From Minisyncoccota bacterium (lineage in GTDB: Bacteria; Patescibacteriota; Minisyncoccia; Phycocordibacterales; WO2-35-19): a DNA stretch of 64,000 bases. Below, in pieces: positions 13 through 15,293 of the stretch. The notes below the pieces were generated by a model that had not been told where the DNA came from, did no database searches, and saw only the letters and a program-made list of their open reading frames with translations. Position numbers and translations under genes: made by a program. Position 1 is the stretch's first letter; each line of letters starts with the position of its first letter. The stretch spans positions 1,956-65,955 of the forward strand of contig JBAYKK010000001.1 of NCBI GenBank assembly GCA_041664625.1. Direction: 5' to 3'.

Positions 13-72
13 TATAATTAAAGTCGCACTCTAGTCGACGTATCGTGCGACATGATTTCGCTAAATCATATG
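13..72 (+). promoter_or_regulatory. Conserved leader element, copy 1. It has a TATAAT box at 13-18, hairpin 1 (GTCGCAC 23-29 pairing GTGCGAC 45-51) and hairpin 2 (ATGATTT 52-58 pairing AAATCAT 63-69) directly abutting the ATG at 70.
   Basis: Perfect inverted repeats read directly. The same architecture recurs at 9782-9857 with a compensatory change in hairpin 2. Confidence 0.6.
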
Positions 73-3255: not shown

Positions 3256-4554
3256 ATGATGCAATCATGGCTTGATCCGTCAGAGCGTGAGTATTTGGTT
3301 TCTCGTTTACTCGAGAGCCAACTTATCAAATTTTCGAACGAAAGGAATTTGCCACTCAAAAGTGGTGGCAAGACTGACGTTTACATCAACTTGCGAGATG
3401 CTCGTAACGATCCACGAGCAATTGGGCTTGTTGCTAGAATGTTTGAAAACCCGCTACGGCGACTTAATCCGGCCCGCTTCATTGAAGTGCCGGATGCGGT
3501 GAGTTGCTTCGCTGGACCACTTTCAATGGCTCTCGGCATGTCATATATCACTGTTCGTGAGAAGCCGAAGGAAGGACGCGTGGCAAAAGCTACGGCCATC
3601 GGCTCAGCAAAGTTCGGAAGTACCGCAGTCATCATTGATGATGTTGTTACCGACGGCGAATCGAAAATCGTTCCGTTCTTCGAGGCAAAATCGATGGGAC
3701 TTCAGGTCAATGACCTCGTTGTTCTCGTCGATCGCCAACAGGGTTGGAAGAAAAAATTCGCTGAACGCGGTGTTGATCTCTCAGTTTGGCCAGGCATGAC
3801 ACTTCACGATGTGCGGAAACTTCTCATCTCGGATTTCGGGGTTATGCAGCGATGCAATCCCGAGACGGAAGAGAAAAATTGCATCATCGTGGCTCTCGAC
3901 GGCAAGAATTGGGAAGAGACGCTAGCGATCATCGACCCACTCCGCCCGTCTGGCTGCATCCTCAAGGTAAACGATCTCCTTTTTGATCAAGGGATCGCTA
4001 ACCTCATTCCCGATCTTCAGGTTTACGGACGAGTCATGGCCGATCTCAAATGCCATGACATTCCGAACACTGTGAAAAACACCTGCGAGCGACTTCGTAA
4101 GAATCCGCCATGGGCTGTTACCGTCCATGCTTCAGGTGCTTCCGGGATGGTTAAGGCTGCTGTCGATGCTCTAGTTGGTACGCCGACCAAGGTGCTCGCC
4201 ATCACGGTCCTTACCTCGATTGATTCGGTAACATGCGAAGATATTTACAATCGTCTTCCGCTGGATCAAGTGTTAATTCTGGCTGAGAAAGCATCTAAGG
4301 CGGGAGCACATGGTTTCGTTTGCTCTCCCGAGGAAGCACGCGAACTCAAACAAATCTATCCCGACAAAACGATTGTCACTCCGGGTATTCGCTCTGAAGC
4401 GACTCCCAAAGATGATCAAGCCAGGATTGCCACACCCTGTGGCGCCAGGGATAACGGTTCTAATTACCTGGTCATGGGCCGTCAAATCCTTGGGGCCAAG
4501 GACCCGGTTGCTGAAGTCAAACGAGTTCTGACTGAAGAACTCGAAATCAAGTAA
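3256..4554 (+). CDS. Bifunctional orotate phosphoribosyltransferase / orotidine-5'-phosphate decarboxylase, a UMP synthase-like PyrE-PyrF fusion.
   Basis: N-terminal half carries the PRPP-binding motif 'VIIDDVVTDGES'. C-terminal half carries OMPdecase motifs 'DLKCHDIPNT', 'VTVHASGASGM', 'VLTS' and 'TPGIR'. RBS GGGAG lies upstream of ATG 3256. GC content is clearly above the flanks. Confidence 0.8.
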   Translation: MMQSWLDPSEREYLVSRLLESQLIKFSNERNLPLKSGGKTDVYINLRDARNDPRAIGLVARMFENPLRRLNPARFIEVPDAVSCFAGPLSMALGMSYITVREKPKEGRVAKATAIGSAKFGSTAVIIDDVVTDGESKIVPFFEAKSMGLQVNDLVVLVDRQQGWKKKFAERGVDLSVWPGMTLHDVRKLLISDFGVMQRCNPETEEKNCIIVALDGKNWEETLAIIDPLRPSGCILKVNDLLFDQGIANLIPDLQVYGRVMADLKCHDIPNTVKNTCERLRKNPPWAVTVHASGASGMVKAAVDALVGTPTKVLAITVLTSIDSVTCEDIYNRLPLDQVLILAEKASKAGAHGFVCSPEEARELKQIYPDKTIVTPGIRSEATPKDDQARIATPCGARDNGSNYLVMGRQILGAKDPVAEVKRVLTEELEIK

Positions 4555-4618: not shown

Positions 4619-4678
4619 TATTATTTTTTGTATTAAAATATAGTAAAGGTCATTATTAATTATTAATTTATAAATCGT

Positions 4679-6260: not shown

Positions 6261-6307
6261 TATGATAATATCTGGACAGTATTATTAAGAGCTAAATCAA
6301 ATCGCGT

Positions 6308-6816: not shown

Positions 6817-8019
6817 ATGTTAAAAATTGAAAATAAAATAAAAAACTCTCTCGGTAGAGCTGGAGTTTTGACTACGGCTCATGGTTCAATCCAAACTCCG
6901 GCTTTTGTGGCAGTGGGCACCAAAGCTACTGTCAAATCTTTGTCTCCAGAACAAGTCAAAGCGGCTGGTTCGCAAGTAGTTTTGGCCAACACTTATCATC
7001 TTTATTTAGAACCCGGAGAAAAAATAGTGAAAGAAGCCGGGGGCTTACATAAATTCATGAATTGGCAAGGTCCGACCATGACTGATTCGGGTGGTTTCCA
7101 AGCTTTTTCTTTGGGGGTGGCTTATGGTAGTAATTTAAATAAGTTTATTGTGAGTGATGCTCCGACAGTTGCCGAGATCGATGAAGCGTATGATAAAAAC
7201 AAAATAAAAAAAGCCAAAATAACTGAAAATGGAGTAGAGTTTCAATCTATTATCGATGGTAGTGCACATTTTTTTACGCCCGAAAAATCTATCCAAATTC
7301 AAAATGATTTGGGGGCGGATATTATTTTTGCTTTTGATGAGTGCACCTCGCCTCACGCTTCCAAAGAATATTTAAAAGAAGCTATGGAGAGGACCCACCG
7401 ATGGGCAAAACGTTGTTTAGATTTTCATAATAAAAAAGAACAATTCTTGTTTGGCATCGTGCAAGGTGGGCGCTATGAAGATTTGAGAAAAGAAAGTGCC
7501 AAAACGATAAGCGGTATGGACTTCGGTGGTTTTGGAGTGGGTGGTTCGTTTATAAAAGAAGATATGGCTACAGCAGTAAAATGGGTCAATGAGATATTGC
7601 CAGAAGAAAAACCTCGGCATCTTTTGGGAGTAGGGGAACCAGTAGATTTAATTTTGGGAGTAGAAAATGGTTGCGACACTTTTGATTGTGTCTCACCGAC
7701 GAGACTAGGACGTAACGGCACATTTTTCACTCACCAAGGCAAAATACATATTGAAAATACAAAATATAGAAACATTTTTGAACCGATAGAAAAAGACCTG
7801 CCCGACGGCAAGGCGGGTTGTGGGTGCTACACTTGCCAAAATTATACTGCCGCTTATGTTTCGCATCTTTTTAGAAGCAAAGAAATGTTGGCTGGCACAT
7901 TGGCCTCGATTCATAATCTTTATTTTTTGAATAATCTTATGTCACGAATTCGTCAGTCAATTTTGGACGGCACATTTTTTGAACTAAAAGAAGAATTTTT
8001 GAGAAATTATAAATCATAA
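6817..8019 (+). CDS. tgt: Queuine tRNA-ribosyltransferase (tRNA-guanine transglycosylase).
   Basis: Motifs 'TDSGGFQ', 'LLGVGEP' and the Zn site 'CGCYTCQNYTAAYVSHL'. Confidence 0.9.
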   Translation: MLKIENKIKNSLGRAGVLTTAHGSIQTPAFVAVGTKATVKSLSPEQVKAAGSQVVLANTYHLYLEPGEKIVKEAGGLHKFMNWQGPTMTDSGGFQAFSLGVAYGSNLNKFIVSDAPTVAEIDEAYDKNKIKKAKITENGVEFQSIIDGSAHFFTPEKSIQIQNDLGADIIFAFDECTSPHASKEYLKEAMERTHRWAKRCLDFHNKKEQFLFGIVQGGRYEDLRKESAKTISGMDFGGFGVGGSFIKEDMATAVKWVNEILPEEKPRHLLGVGEPVDLILGVENGCDTFDCVSPTRLGRNGTFFTHQGKIHIENTKYRNIFEPIEKDLPDGKAGCGCYTCQNYTAAYVSHLFRSKEMLAGTLASIHNLYFLNNLMSRIRQSILDGTFFELKEEFLRNYKS

Positions 8020-9320: not shown

Positions 9321-9738
9321 CCATACTTCCGTCTGCATTCCCTTGGGTTTCTTTTATTATTGCTCCAATTAAAATTCCTACTTTACTTTTGTCTGTGATT
9401 TTTAATTCTTCAATTTTCAATTTTGCAATTTTTTCGATTTGATTCTCTGACATTTGAGCGGGCAAAAATTCTTCCAAAATTTTCATTTCAGCTTTTTCAT
9501 TTTCAGCCAAATCTTTGCGACCACCTTTTTCAAACTGTTCTATAGAATCTTTTCTTTGTTTGACTAATCGACGGATGACAGCGATAGCTTCTTCGTCGGA
9601 AAGTTTGTCTTGAGGTTTGCGTTTCAAATTCATCACTTCATTGGTAAAAGCGGCTAAAACGCCACGCAAAGTAGTGAGTCTGACTTCGTCTTTGGCTCGC
9701 ATAGCATCAGGGATTTGGTTTTGTATTTTTTCGTGCAT
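9289..9738 (-). CDS. GatB/YqeY-domain protein.
   Basis: Full-length similarity to the YqeY family ('MRAKD..RLTTLR', 'LSDEE..AVI...VKQRKDS'). Confidence 0.8.
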   Translation of the reverse strand: MHEKIQNQIPDAMRAKDEVRLTTLRGVLAAFTNEVMNLKRKPQDKLSDEEAIAVIRRLVKQRKDSIEQFEKGGRKDLAENEKAEMKILEEFLPAQMSENQIEKIAKLKIEELKITDKSKVGILIGAIIKETQGNADGSMVKKIVNSLLS

Positions 9739-9781
9739 CGTATTTGGATGTTATTTTTAATGATTAAATTTTATCAAATTT

Positions 9782-9857
9782 CTGATATAATGAAAAGGAA
9801 ATAAGTCGCACTCCAAAGGACGGTATCGTGCGACACGATTTCGCAAAATCGCATATG
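9782..9857 (+). promoter_or_regulatory. Conserved leader element, copy 2. It has an extended -10 (cTGaTATAAT, 9783-9791), hairpin 1 (GTCGCAC 9805-9811 pairing GTGCGAC 9828-9834) and hairpin 2 (CGATTT 9836-9841 pairing AAATCG 9846-9851) abutting ATG 9855.
   Basis: Same architecture as 13-72. Hairpin 2 shows a T:A to C:G compensatory change. Confidence 0.6.
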
Positions 9858-10895
9858 CAAAATATCGCTCTCATAATTTTGGCAGTTGGGCTTTTGGTGG
9901 CGGTTTTTGCTTTGCTTAAAAGGAAACCCGACGAAAAATCAAACGATGGAGCTATGAAATTGCTTTTGGAACAAATGAATGAACTTTCCCGGACTATGGA
10001 TAGGAAAATGGGTGAGACTACTAAACAGGTTAACGAATCCATGAAGGACCAGTTTAGAGAATCTAGCAAACTCATCCGTGATGTGACAGAGGGTTTAACT
10101 AAGCTTGATGAGACCAACAAACAAGTTATTTCTTTTGCTGATCAACTCCAAAATTTGCAAGATATTTTGAAAAATCCCAAACAGCGGGGGATCCTCGGTG
10201 AGTATTACCTGGAAACACTACTCAAAAATGTTTTGGCACCAGCTCAATATCAAATGCAATATGCTTTTGTAAATGGTGAAATCGTGGATGCTGTGGTTTT
10301 TGTCAAAGATAAAGTTATACCGATTGATTCCAAATTTTCACTCGAGAATTATAATCGTTTGATTGGAGCCAAAGATCCAGCTGAAAAAGAACGACTAGAA
10401 AAACTTTTTATAAATGATTTGAAATTGCGTATTACTGAAACTTCAAAATACATTCGCCCAACCGAAGGTACAATGGATTTTGCTTTTATGTTTATCCCTC
10501 ACGAAGCTATTTATTATGATTTGCTTATAAATAAAATCGGAGCAGTGACAGAAGATACGGAAAATCTGATCCAAAGAGCGGCTGGCAAATATAAAGTGAT
10601 TATTGTCTCCCCGACCTCGTTTTTGGCATACCTCCAGACAGTTTTACAGGGTCTCAAAGCAATGCAAATAGAGGAGACAGCAAAAGATATAATAAAGAGA
10701 GTTGGGGAGCTTTCTGAGCACTTAAAAAAGTATGAAATGTATCATGGCAAACTCGGCAACTCATTGGAGACGGTGGTCAATCATTTCAATGCTTCTAGCA
10801 AAGAGTTTAAAAAGGTAGACAAAGATGTGGTGCGTATAACCGGTGTTTCTCAAGCTTTTGAAGTCCCTATTTTGGACAAGCCAGATATAGAATAA
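9855..10895 (+). CDS. rmuC: DNA recombination protein RmuC.
   Basis: N-terminal TM segment followed by a coiled coil and the RmuC core ('GEYYLETLL', 'IPIDSKF', 'FAFMFIP'). Start set to ATG 9855, downstream of the conserved leader. Confidence 0.8.
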   Translation: MQNIALIILAVGLLVAVFALLKRKPDEKSNDGAMKLLLEQMNELSRTMDRKMGETTKQVNESMKDQFRESSKLIRDVTEGLTKLDETNKQVISFADQLQNLQDILKNPKQRGILGEYYLETLLKNVLAPAQYQMQYAFVNGEIVDAVVFVKDKVIPIDSKFSLENYNRLIGAKDPAEKERLEKLFINDLKLRITETSKYIRPTEGTMDFAFMFIPHEAIYYDLLINKIGAVTEDTENLIQRAAGKYKVIIVSPTSFLAYLQTVLQGLKAMQIEETAKDIIKRVGELSEHLKKYEMYHGKLGNSLETVVNHFNASSKEFKKVDKDVVRITGVSQAFEVPILDKPDIE

Positions 10896-13900: not shown

Positions 13901-15293
13901 AAAATTCGCGGAATTCGCCTTCGGCACCACTAAACTGAGCTTTTTCAAGTGGTAAAAACATAACCTTCTTTTCATCAAAGAAGAGGTCAACTTTGCCAGT
14001 GGCACCGTTTCTGTGTTTTTCAATAAGTATTTCGGCGATGTTGGTTTTTTCGGCGTCGTTGCTACCTTTGGCTTTGTCTTCGCGGTGTATAAACATAACC
14101 ACATCGGCGTCTTGTTCGATTGAACCTGAATCACGTAAGTCGGAGAGTTTGGGTCTACCACCACGCTGTTCAATGGCACGAGAAAGCTGAGAGAGAGCAA
14201 TGACTGGTACTTCAAGTTCGCGAGCCAAATTTTTGAGGGAACGAGAAATCTCGGTGACTTGGTTAACCATCGAATCATAATTTTTGGTGGTCACCATGAG
14301 TTGTAAGTAGTCCACGATGATAAGCCCCAAACCTTTTTCATTTTTGAGTCGTCTGGCGACTGAGCGCATTTTCAAAATGTTGTTGCCAGGCTGATCATCT
14401 ATGAAAATCGGAGCTTTGGAAAGCACATCTAAAGATTGGCGTATAGAGGCGAAGTCATCTTCGCGATTAAGTCTACCGGTACGCAATTTCCAAGCATCTA
14501 CGTTGGATTGGGAAGCGAGCATACGATCTACTAATTGTTGGGAGCTCATTTCTAAAGAAAATATACCGACTGGGACATTGTGATTGACCGCGGCTTGGCG
14601 AGCGATATCTAGAGCAAGCGCGGTTTTACCAACTGATGGTCTGGCTGCCAAAATAATGAGATCGGATTTTTGGAAACCAGAAAGTTTGTCATCTAATTCT
14701 TTGAAACCGCTGGGTACTCCACGTAGACCGTCTCCAGAATTGTGCATTTTATCAAGTCTTTCCCACGCTTCGGCCAACTCATCTTTCATTTCTACAAATT
14801 TGTGGATACTGGCGATGTTGGTCACATCATATATTTTTTTCTGAGCTTGATCCAAAAGTTCTTCCAATTCTTCGGCTTCGTCATAACCCAACGAGGAAAT
14901 GAAATCGGCTGCCGCAATCAGATTGCGAGCGATATGTTTTTTTTGGATTATTTGCGCGTAGTAGGTGGCATTGGCAGCTGAAGGTACCGAATTGATAACC
15001 TCTCCCAAATAAGTGTTACCACCGATTTCTTCCAAAATGTTTTTTTCTTTTAACCGAGCTGATACGGTGAGCAAATCAGTCGGACTCCTTTTGCTGAAAA
15101 GTTCGAGCATGGTCTCAAAAATCAAACGGTGCTTTTCAGAATAAAAAGAGGCACAGTGGGCTAAATCAGTAATTTCAAACATTACTTCTGGTCTGAGCAT
15201 CACCGAACCGAGGAGAGCCTTTTCGGCTTCGGTGTTGTTGGGTGGGATTCGCAGATGAGTTTTTTTGACTTCCATGCCCACATCATATATCAA
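13899..15293 (-). CDS. dnaB: Replicative DNA helicase DnaB.
   Basis: Walker A 'ARPSVGKTALAL' plus DnaB N-terminal and C-terminal domains. Confidence 0.9.
   Translation of the reverse strand: MIYDVGMEVKKTHLRIPPNNTEAEKALLGSVMLRPEVMFEITDLAHCASFYSEKHRLIFETMLELFSKRSPTDLLTVSARLKEKNILEEIGGNTYLGEVINSVPSAANATYYAQIIQKKHIARNLIAAADFISSLGYDEAEELEELLDQAQKKIYDVTNIASIHKFVEMKDELAEAWERLDKMHNSGDGLRGVPSGFKELDDKLSGFQKSDLIILAARPSVGKTALALDIARQAAVNHNVPVGIFSLEMSSQQLVDRMLASQSNVDAWKLRTGRLNREDDFASIRQSLDVLSKAPIFIDDQPGNNILKMRSVARRLKNEKGLGLIIVDYLQLMVTTKNYDSMVNQVTEISRSLKNLARELEVPVIALSQLSRAIEQRGGRPKLSDLRDSGSIEQDADVVMFIHREDKAKGSNDAEKTNIAEILIEKHRNGATGKVDLFFDEKKVMFLPLEKAQFSGAEGEFREF

Follow-up and report, generated by a model that had tools for sequence, protein, structure and literature searches.

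Several classes of short bacterial element resemble, each in part, the one that we describe here: a module of two adjacent hairpins that lies directly 5′ of the start codons of rmuC and of an ATPase gene in a 64,000-nt stretch of DNA from a Minisyncoccota bacterium (contig JBAYKK010000001.1, positions 1,956 to 65,955; hereafter “the window”). Among these precedents are the REP and REPIN sequences of Proteobacteria, short (20–50 nt) palindromic repeats with many dispersed copies and a family-wide conserved sequence. Our element is like them in this and in long persistence with local gain and loss, and it would also resemble them in co-transcription with neighboring genes and in an effect on the mRNA. 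REPs, however, are found mainly 3′ of genes, are marked by GTAG or CGTC, and are accompanied by a RAYT gene, whereas the present element begins with GTCG (GTCGCAC), comprises two different hairpins, and sits 5′ of a start codon in 85% of its copies; no RAYT or Y1 gene was seen in the sampled DNA. The Correia elements of Neisseria, which are mobile regulatory MITEs (miniature transposable elements that carry inverted repeats), are likewise small and non-autonomous, lie near promoters, alter the 5′ untranslated regions (UTRs) of their neighbors, and form hairpins in transcripts. They differ in their length (100–155 bp), their terminal inverted repeats (TIRs), and their TA duplication; neither a TIR nor a target-site duplication (TSD) was seen for our element. 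Palindrome-associated transposable elements (PATEs), which derive from IS200/IS605, offer subterminal hairpins without TIRs or TSDs, and the “CAT” by one end of our element (the start codon read on the other strand) could be a short specific target like theirs. Yet the two hairpins here are dissimilar, and no TnpA or long parent was found in the fetched DNA. We know of no Correia element or PATE described as being placed 1 nt from an ATG.

A second set of precedents concerns the initiation of translation. Genes 38 and 25 of phage T4 have split ribosome-binding sites, in which a stable hairpin brings an upstream initiation signal near the AUG, and one copy of our element (that in locus L131) is arranged in exactly this way. 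The T4 hairpins are single and gene-specific, however, and most copies of the element follow a −10 box, not a Shine-Dalgarno (SD) sequence. Structured 5′ leaders (riboswitches, ANTAR targets, and RNA thermometers) also place conserved, covarying tandem hairpins at start sites, but the element has no coherent regulon, and its copies turn over rapidly and nest. Unlike in a riboswitch, its structure is conserved before unrelated genes, and no terminator or SD-sequestering alternative was seen, nor any extra covarying pair; its loops (13–17 and 4 nt) are not the two hexaloops with conserved A1 and G4 of ANTAR targets; and its AUG stands outside hairpin 2, with no SD, whereas an RNA thermometer pairs the SD or the AUG. 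The comparison with ANTAR targets was prompted by bioRxiv 10.1101/660928. The leaderless mRNAs of Actinobacteria, Deinococcus, and archaea are pertinent because rmuC and the ATPase gene are so arranged in relatives; in the window, by contrast, the element interrupts this arrangement at both genes, which are leadered, without an SD. Against Rfam 15, only three tRNAs reached the gathering score in the whole window, and at E ≤ 10 the interval 9700–9950 returned only sub-threshold snoRNA and miRNA noise. The literature, including queries with literal sequence, yielded no description of the element. We conclude that it was previously undescribed and that it fails a defining feature of each of its nearest known systems.

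The two copies in the window occupy positions 23–69 and 9805–9851, each just 5′ of an ATG, and have one order: hairpin 1 (GTCGCAC-N15/16-GTGCGAC), a single A, hairpin 2 (YGATTT-CGCW-AAATCR), and then the ATG. An earlier note on this DNA had proposed that positions 9782–9857 (ctgaTATAATgaaaaggaaataaGTCGCACtccaaaggacggtatcGTGCGACaCGATTTcgcaAAATCGcatATG) hold a second copy of a conserved leader, and both copies are present as it described; positions 1–72 (gtTATAATtaaaGTCGCACtctagtcgacgtatcGTGCGACATGATTTcgctAAATCATATG) are of the same design. The pattern GTCGCAC-N8-25-GTGCGAC has two matches in the window (23–51 and 9805–9834; 0.00 expected in 100 shuffles), and the 23-nt junction together with the hairpin-2 motif occurs exactly twice (0 expected). 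When a covariance model was run over the 64 kb, these two were the only true copies (81 bits for copy 1 and 78 for copy 2), the rest being chance matches. A putative third, degenerate copy at 15063–15131 (13.7 bits) was rejected as one of these, for it lies inside a 464-aa open reading frame (ORF).

All features of the two copies are on the forward strand. Copy 2 is preceded by the extended −10 box of rmuC, TGaTATAAT (9783–9791), which is common to the nearest relative, L081, where it lies 6 nt before the ATG. Between this box and the element is a purine-rich 5′ extension, GAAAAGGAAATAA (9792–9804), that L081 lacks. Pattern, folding, and covariation define hairpin 1 of this copy (9805–9834), which has a 7-bp stem, GTCGCAC/GTGCGAC, and a 16-nt loop, TCCAAAGGACGGTATC; folding and covariation define hairpin 2 (9836–9851), which has a 6-bp stem, CGATTT/AAATCG, and the loop CGCA. 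In copy 1, delimited by the covariance model and by folding, hairpin 1 (23–51) has the loop TCTAGTCGACGTATC, and hairpin 2 (52–69) reads ATGATTT-CGCT-AAATCAT; the −10 box of the ATPase gene (TATAAT, 13–18) ends 4 nt 5′ of hairpin 1. The outer pair of hairpin 2 is U-A in copy 1 and C-G in copy 2, a compensatory change. Each copy folds into two adjacent hairpins, at −13.9 and −14.8 kcal/mol (z about −2.0). Just 5′ of window position 1, at 1955–1996 of L178, an intrinsic-terminator-like hairpin (AAAATAGCTCC-GTCT-GGAGCTATTTT and a T run) ends a DUF378 gene directly before the ATPase −10 box, and copy 1 thus heads its own transcription unit.

Is any part of the element translated? In a list of longest ORFs, rmuC starts at GTG 9828 (355 aa) and the ATPase gene at ATG 52 (924 aa). 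The earlier note had placed both of these codons inside hairpins, and so they are: GTG 9828 opens the 3′ arm of hairpin 1, and ATG 52 belongs to the 5′ arm of hairpin 2. It had favored the ATG immediately after hairpin 2 instead, and several lines of evidence agree with it. A public RmuC (P0001) from a metagenome-assembled genome of Candidatus Paceibacterota has 346 aa and is 100% identical to the product of a start at ATG 9855; the next matches come from Candidatus Zambryskibacteria. The coding sequence so defined (9855–10895; RmuC Pfam match, E = 4e-52) encodes the N-terminal transmembrane helix MQNIALIILAVGLLVAVFALL that the note had anticipated, and nearly all of the 120 best RmuC homologs (344–350 aa) begin with M[QED]x followed directly by such a hydrophobic helix. 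The comparison of orthologous N-termini, which the note had named as the observation that could overturn its proposal, turned out in its favor, in that these 120 homologs do not conserve the longer N-terminus. On the source contig, the ATPase is publicly annotated with 918 aa, which corresponds to a start at ATG 70, as the note had it; this HerA/TraG-like protein (DUF8128/DUF87, TraG-D_C; 70–2826) begins with MEYKFPLP. Furthermore, L081 has an in-frame stop five codons 5′ of the same ATG in rmuC and three codons 5′ of it in the ATPase gene, and a longer N-terminus is therefore impossible in that relative.

The contrary account, in which the longer ORFs are real and the common sequence encodes a short N-terminal peptide, can point to frames that are open from GTG 9828 and ATG 52 and to the ATG of the hairpin-2 5′ arm, which in most copies stands 18 nt 5′ of the main ATG, in the same frame and with no intervening stop. 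In the window (52–72) and in most copies, this upstream ATG would add MISLNH or MILQNH. Yet orthologs have in-frame stops in place of any extension, and the two putative extensions, VRHDFAKSH (9828–9854) and MISLNH, have no common frame or sequence. In a typical copy of the family, the codon equivalent to GTG 9828 does not share the frame of the gene. Moreover, the upstream ATG is an ACG in 5 of the 58 strict copies that were aligned, or in 8 of 70 when divergent distinct copies are counted too, and its partner base always compensates. We give this account practically no credence. The selected feature of the ATG in the hairpin-2 5′ arm appears to be structure, not coding, and VRHDFAKSH is a spurious, non-coding product of longest-ORF calling, as the orthologous N-termini and the L081 stop indicate.

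The mis-called starts belong to the longest-ORF list; the public annotation of these two genes is free of them. It is not so elsewhere. At 4056–4124 of L084, a public DUF5652 call (4094–4375) starts at the GTG of the hairpin-1 3′ arm, with the loop sequence AAGGA serving as a pseudo-SD; translation more likely begins at an ATG that follows hairpin 2 by a few nt (ATGGGTTTACAA...). Here the element has led to a genuine error in the annotation. Gene callers can start inside the element because it holds a GTG, usually an in-frame ATG, and an SD-like AAGGA in its loop, and, with the family known, start sites can be corrected in many genomes of Paceibacteria. The start-codon correction is correct but minor; the larger result is the widespread, strongly constrained family of elements that underlies it, in bacteria of the candidate phyla radiation (CPR).

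The neighborhood of rmuC in relatives places the acquisition of copy 2 in the recent past. L081, L084, L173, and L175, whose RmuC proteins are 90–93% identical to that of the window, all lack the element at rmuC. The gap from the −10 box to the rmuC ATG is 6 nt in L081, L173, and L175 (TATAAT) and 9 nt in L084 (TAGAAT). In L081 the rmuC start region reads ctgaTATAATttccatATG, with upstream sequence common to the window, and the ATPase start region, also without the element, reads gcTATAATaaacgggtATG. Among 80 species-representative loci, the rmuC −10 hexamer ends 6–8 nt before the ATG in 57, and at exactly 6 nt in 40. With gaps this short both in close relatives and in the 57 loci, rmuC is typically leaderless in the clade; the public gene starts in L081 and L084 are a mixture of leaderless arrangements and SD-led genes. 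The window departs from the leaderless spacing (a −10 box about 6–8 nt before the ATG, so that the transcript would begin at the A of this codon), with distances of 63 nt at rmuC and 51 nt at the ATPase gene: its genome has gained about 57 extra nt between the −10 box and the ATG at two genes. Among five close relatives, the rmuC copy is unique to the window genome. We hold with high confidence the joint conclusion that this is a recently inserted, non-coding copy of a family and that translation starts at ATG 9855 and ATG 70. The note's picture of a locally conserved leader does not survive: the element is a dispersed repeat, and the copy at rmuC is a recent acquisition.

On the assumption that the start of transcription follows the −10 box by about 7 nt, as in the leaderless relatives, the rmuC transcript would begin at G9798 and have a 57-nt leader, and that of the ATPase gene would begin at about position 25–26, inside the 5′ arm of hairpin 1. 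Since the latter −10 box ends 4 nt before hairpin 1, the first bases of that hairpin in copy 1 would then be untranscribed. The description of the element in the earlier note as a 5′ UTR and not coding sequence stands as to its non-coding nature; “5′ UTR” is only partly accurate for copy 1.

The family came to light in a scan of Joint Genome Institute (JGI) metagenome contigs with the pattern GTCGCAC-N12-20-GTGCGACANGATTT (21 bases). It returned 86 stretches, about ten of them GC-rich chance matches; about 60 distinct true copies lay on AT-rich contigs. The copies, about 50–63 nt long, belong to the Paceibacteria/Zambryskibacteria (CPR), and they share the consensus [−10 box]-3 or ~13 nt-GTCGCAC-TYYARWNGACR(G)TAKC-GTGCGAC-A-YGATTTYGCWAAATCR-N-ATG. 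In 53 of 62 distinct copies (85%), the start ATG stands exactly 1 nt after hairpin 2, and the element is oriented with the gene. The AUG is outside hairpin 2, 0–3 nt beyond it, and the window copies have no SD. We distinguish a class I, in which the −10 box ends 3 nt 5′ of hairpin 1 (15 copies; copy 1 is near this spacing), from a class II, in which it ends 12–13 nt 5′ of it (nine copies) and a conserved purine-rich extension intervenes, as in window copy 2. Extensions like that at 9792–9804 (rAAAAGrAArtnA) precede hairpin 1 at other genes and in other genomes, e.g., L104, L115, L166, and L114. In L131, the element lies within an operon, between a GAGGAG SD and the ATG of the L29 gene, so that the unpaired spacing is 5+1 nt.

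The genes that follow these copies are diverse. They include genes for PPDK, TIM, PGI, transketolase, NusA, RRF, AspRS-type and ProRS synthetases, L19, S17, L29, L31 (rpmE), Adk, Ndk, SOD, glutaredoxin, FKBP, RNase H, exonuclease III (Xth), a PilB-type ATPase, PrgI, and LemA, as well as for various membrane and secreted proteins. That rmuC and a HerA-like ATPase gene both bear a copy raised the possibility of a DNA-damage regulon, which we rejected, the downstream genes of the family at large being general housekeeping genes. Copy density reaches five in 8 kb of L126/L147, compared with two in the 64-kb window. The family is confined to certain lineages: of the 80 species loci, only L028, L040, and L063 bear a copy, as do the L084–L086 contigs, which were retrieved separately. 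The viral contigs that were scanned held no copies. None of the fetched loci includes a 16S rRNA gene.

Five copies are away from start codons, those of L168/L149 and of the L098-type loci being at the 3′ end of an opposite-strand gene. At L168 2299–2367 and 4725–4793 and in L098/L102/L106/L120, no ATG follows, and the stop codon (TGA or TAG) of the opposite-strand gene falls inside hairpin 2; the two 3′-end copies of L168 are 2.4 kb apart, in a duplicated segment. The idea that the element and a GC hairpin form a small RNA gene in L149/L168 was considered and discarded: the region is a convergent intergenic one, and the “hairpin” is the end of the opposite-strand ORF.

The constancy of the ATG 1 nt after hairpin 2, whatever precedes the element (a −10 box at 3 or 13 nt, or an SD), is what a processing signal would produce. 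An endonuclease, or self-cleavage, would cut at the base of hairpin 2 and release a leaderless mRNA that begins 5′-(N)AUG, to be translated by the leaderless pathway on which most first genes of these organisms rely. Both RNase III and RNase J have been kept in CPR genomes (PMC12641178). The leaderless arrangement is dominant in relatives, and the abutting helices could stack into a duplex of about 14 bp. Such a duplex is nonetheless shorter than canonical RNase III substrates, Rfam yielded no similarity to a known self-cleaving ribozyme or tRNA-like substrate even at E ≤ 10, and the copies at gene 3′ ends are left unexplained. We consider processing, a variant of the regulatory account weighed below, improbable.

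The two hairpins recur across the family. RNAalifold, applied to the family, independently returned the same pair. In the strict set, the pattern itself fixes the stem of hairpin 1, and only the outer pair of hairpin 2 was free to vary (U-A in 52 copies, C-G in 5). Divergent copies, found with the covariance model in unbiased DNA, have hairpin-1 stems with compensatory changes: GCCGUCCC/GGGACGGC ahead of FKBP in L084/L085/L126, together with GUCGCGC/GCGCGAC, GUCGGGUU/AACCCGAC, and GAUCGCGC/GCGUGAUC. These copies keep the loop motif AAUGGACG. In an alignment fitted to the covariance model, double (compensatory) changes occurred at 7 of 13 pairs, among them 5 of the 7 pairs of hairpin 1, and 99.4% of cells were paired; none of 500 shuffles reached this level of pairing and covariation, and no slid register came close. 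Mutual information revealed no extra Watson-Crick covariation of the pseudoknot or loop-loop kind. The hairpin-1 loops measure 13–17 nt around a conserved GAC core, and the hairpin-2 loop 4 nt. A CsrA-type GGA or an SD within loop 1 was rejected, as only about half of the loops contain GGA and the conserved core is GAC. Likeness to a K-turn, to a T-loop or tRNA, and to a cold box was dismissed as well (misplaced G-A pairs, no match to the tRNA model at E ≤ 10, and similarity too short to be meaningful).

These data also bear on a reading of the element as a DNA operator, in which the palindromes GTCGCAC...GTGCGAC and TGATTT-CGCT-AAATCA would bind a dimeric repressor just 3′ of the −10 box. Both parts are indeed palindromic and strongly conserved in sequence, they lie 3–13 nt 3′ of −10 boxes, and the class I spacing sets hairpin 1 over the predicted transcription start. 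Yet the spacing of the hairpin-1 half-sites varies from 13 to 17 nt, and the half-site changes are compensatory, which a protein operator does not require. The orientation, too, is strict, and the distance held constant is that to the ATG, not that to the −10 box; some copies are in operons after an SD or at gene 3′ ends. Because of the variable spacing, the compensatory changes, and the strict orientation, we regard an operator as very improbable.

A different repeat in another Paceibacterota genome (L032, 18100–18245 and 15400–15455) contains a hairpin-2-like module, ACCCAGUAGG-UGAUUCUGCUGAAUCA, enclosed by a GC-rich stem of 11–12 bp (AGAGGCGAGGCC...GGCTTCGCCTCT); two copies are in tandem, 68 nt apart. 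This repeat suggests that hairpin 2 is a reusable module.

How stable are the copies over evolutionary time? At orthologous loci (NusA in four genomes, PPDK, SOD, an XRE regulator, and an 84-aa protein), the copies are 91–98% identical, a figure that is inflated by the fixed positions of the search pattern, although the retention of all of these positions is still informative. At the same loci, the third codon positions of conserved residues are 36–59% identical, and the upstream flanks 42–76%; synonymous sites are thus near saturation where the copies have hardly changed. Other copies come and go quickly. At 90% RmuC identity, L084 bears copies before its FKBP and DUF5652 genes but lacks one at rmuC, and the window has the reverse. 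The FKBP (6291–6307) and DUF5652 (4670–4678) positions of the window show only TAAATCR-N-ATG fragments (GCTAAATCAAATCGCGT-ATG and ATAAATCGT-ATG, respectively), which resemble the 3′ half of hairpin 2, where L084 and L170 have full copies, and these fragments look like deletion remnants. In L126 (13–121, minus strand), compared with L147 (4233–4301, plus strand), a 40-nt insertion after GTCG in the hairpin-1 loop makes a complete inner copy; this nested copy is polymorphic between contigs that are otherwise about 97% identical. Further composite forms occur in L165 (7794–7861, minus strand) compared with L157 (10169–10236, minus strand) and in L146 (2924–3018), and many hairpin-1 loops contain GTCGAC, which resembles an “empty” hairpin-1 base. 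The ends of the element (GTCGCAC... and ...AAATCR-N) are not inverted repeats, and the filled and empty pairs (window/L081 and L126/L147) show no duplication.

The main rival to our explanation invokes a dedicated cis-regulatory leader RNA. Its hairpins would be bound by a trans-acting factor that is itself conserved, be it an RNA-binding protein, the ribosome, or a global small-molecule signal. For many genes, this factor would control translation initiation or make it possible, or else stabilize the mRNA, and recombination would occasionally recruit new genes. The 1-nt spacing to the start codon in 85% of copies, in the orientation of the gene, is what such a leader would have; so are loops and stems conserved well beyond synonymous sites at orthologous loci, covariation in both helices, and placement downstream of −10 boxes, and the hairpin-2-like modules in the other repeat scaffolds of L032 suggest a recognized RNA module. 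On the other hand, the downstream genes have no functional theme, the copies differ between genomes with 90% identical RmuC (that at rmuC being found only in the window genome), some are nested, and those at gene 3′ ends are in no position to control a start codon. With the promoter spacing of class I, the predicted start would fall within hairpin 1; neither a candidate pocket for a ligand nor a pseudoknot or further covarying pair was found, and Rfam gave no match. We regard the regulatory leader as unlikely, though as an account to be taken seriously.

We prefer to view the element as a mobile repeat that is carried as a self-folding, initiation-preserving leader. It would be a copy-and-paste DNA repeat, REP- or MITE-like in behavior, that spreads via a mobilizing activity or by microhomology-driven templated copying; recent gains, nesting, 3′-end copies, and the diversity of the genes point in this direction. 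Once inserted, it would be co-transcribed as a leader (at rmuC, from G9798 and over 57 nt), and its two abutting helices would fold so that the ends of the element meet. The upstream signal, whether the 5′ end of the mRNA or an SD as in L131, would then stay beside the AUG, and initiation would survive the insertion; the spacing in L131 (5+1 unpaired nt) fits this idea. The conserved loops may be the recognition site of a trans factor, either a mobilizing enzyme or an RNA-binding protein. Long retention, the conserved loops, and the single-nucleotide spacing to the ATG point to constraint at the level of the host or its machinery. For this mechanism by itself we put the chances a little short of even. 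The whole account, in which it is combined with the dispersed-repeat copy and the ATG starts, we judge slightly more probable than that, just past even; this grade blends our high confidence in the copy and its starts with our guarded view of the mechanism.

Several observations weigh against this preferred explanation. The strict scan pattern fixes about half of the positions, which inflates the apparent conservation and hides stem variation. The G-U and A-C exceptions in the stems are balanced, so that pairing specific to the RNA strand does not follow from them; the stem data show a hairpin in a single strand, and do not prove that strand to be RNA. When more 3′ context is included for copy 2, its minimum-energy fold changes and becomes unremarkable (z = −1.0). 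The −10 box of class I copies ends 3–4 nt before hairpin 1, and that of copy 1 is placed nearly so; since the predicted start would fall within the 5′ arm, the full hairpin 1 could not form in class I RNA, and a purely RNA-level account is weakened. Long retention and strong constraint at orthologous sites are no less compatible with a function for the host than with a selfish repeat. Finally, about 2 Mb of fetched DNA held no TIR, TSD, cargo-carrying long version, or Y1/RAYT transposase. Searches by tblastn with approximate IS200 TnpA and E. coli RAYT queries gave no match in the window or in element-bearing loci, and the sole match (L057, E = 4e-5) comes from a locus that lacks the element.

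CPR bacteria have not been cultured, and very little is known about the signals that govern their gene expression. In this clade, the leaderless arrangement is the default for rmuC, and a single module of about 50 nt precedes the start codons of dozens of core genes that are unrelated to each other, with a placement exact to the nucleotide. It is under strong sequence constraint and yet moves between genes on strain-level timescales. Its unusual property is the exact placement 1 nt 5′ of start codons, which turns leaderless genes into leadered ones. It may be a mobile repeat that the ribosome does not perceive, or else a portable module for initiation or regulation; in either case, it gives a handle on SD-less initiation, is easily synthesized, and is a candidate binding site for fishing out a partner factor. 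In a broader and more speculative reading, which we think rather doubtful, the element would represent a new class of CPR mobile cis-element that targets the site directly 5′ of start codons and gives leaderless or SD-led genes a folded leader. It would be harmless or useful either through the end-juxtaposing fold (a “structural bypass”) or through cleavage that regenerates a 5′-AUG leaderless mRNA, and would then be a bacterial analogue of tRNA punctuation and a portable translation-initiation module that is recognized by a conserved factor.

Two further differences between the relatives and the window do not involve the element. In L173 (1520–1592), a long perfect inverted repeat, aaaaatcacgaaaacattgtttc ... 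gaaacaatgttttcgtgattttt, lies 5′ of the leaderless rmuC and is not found in the window. The tRNA-guanine transglycosylase (TGT) of the window (6817–8019) has 400 aa, and that of L081 (7035–8657) has 540 aa, with DUF559/MTES_1575 endonuclease-type domains between two TGT segments. These extra domains may be a homing-endonuclease or intein-like insertion.

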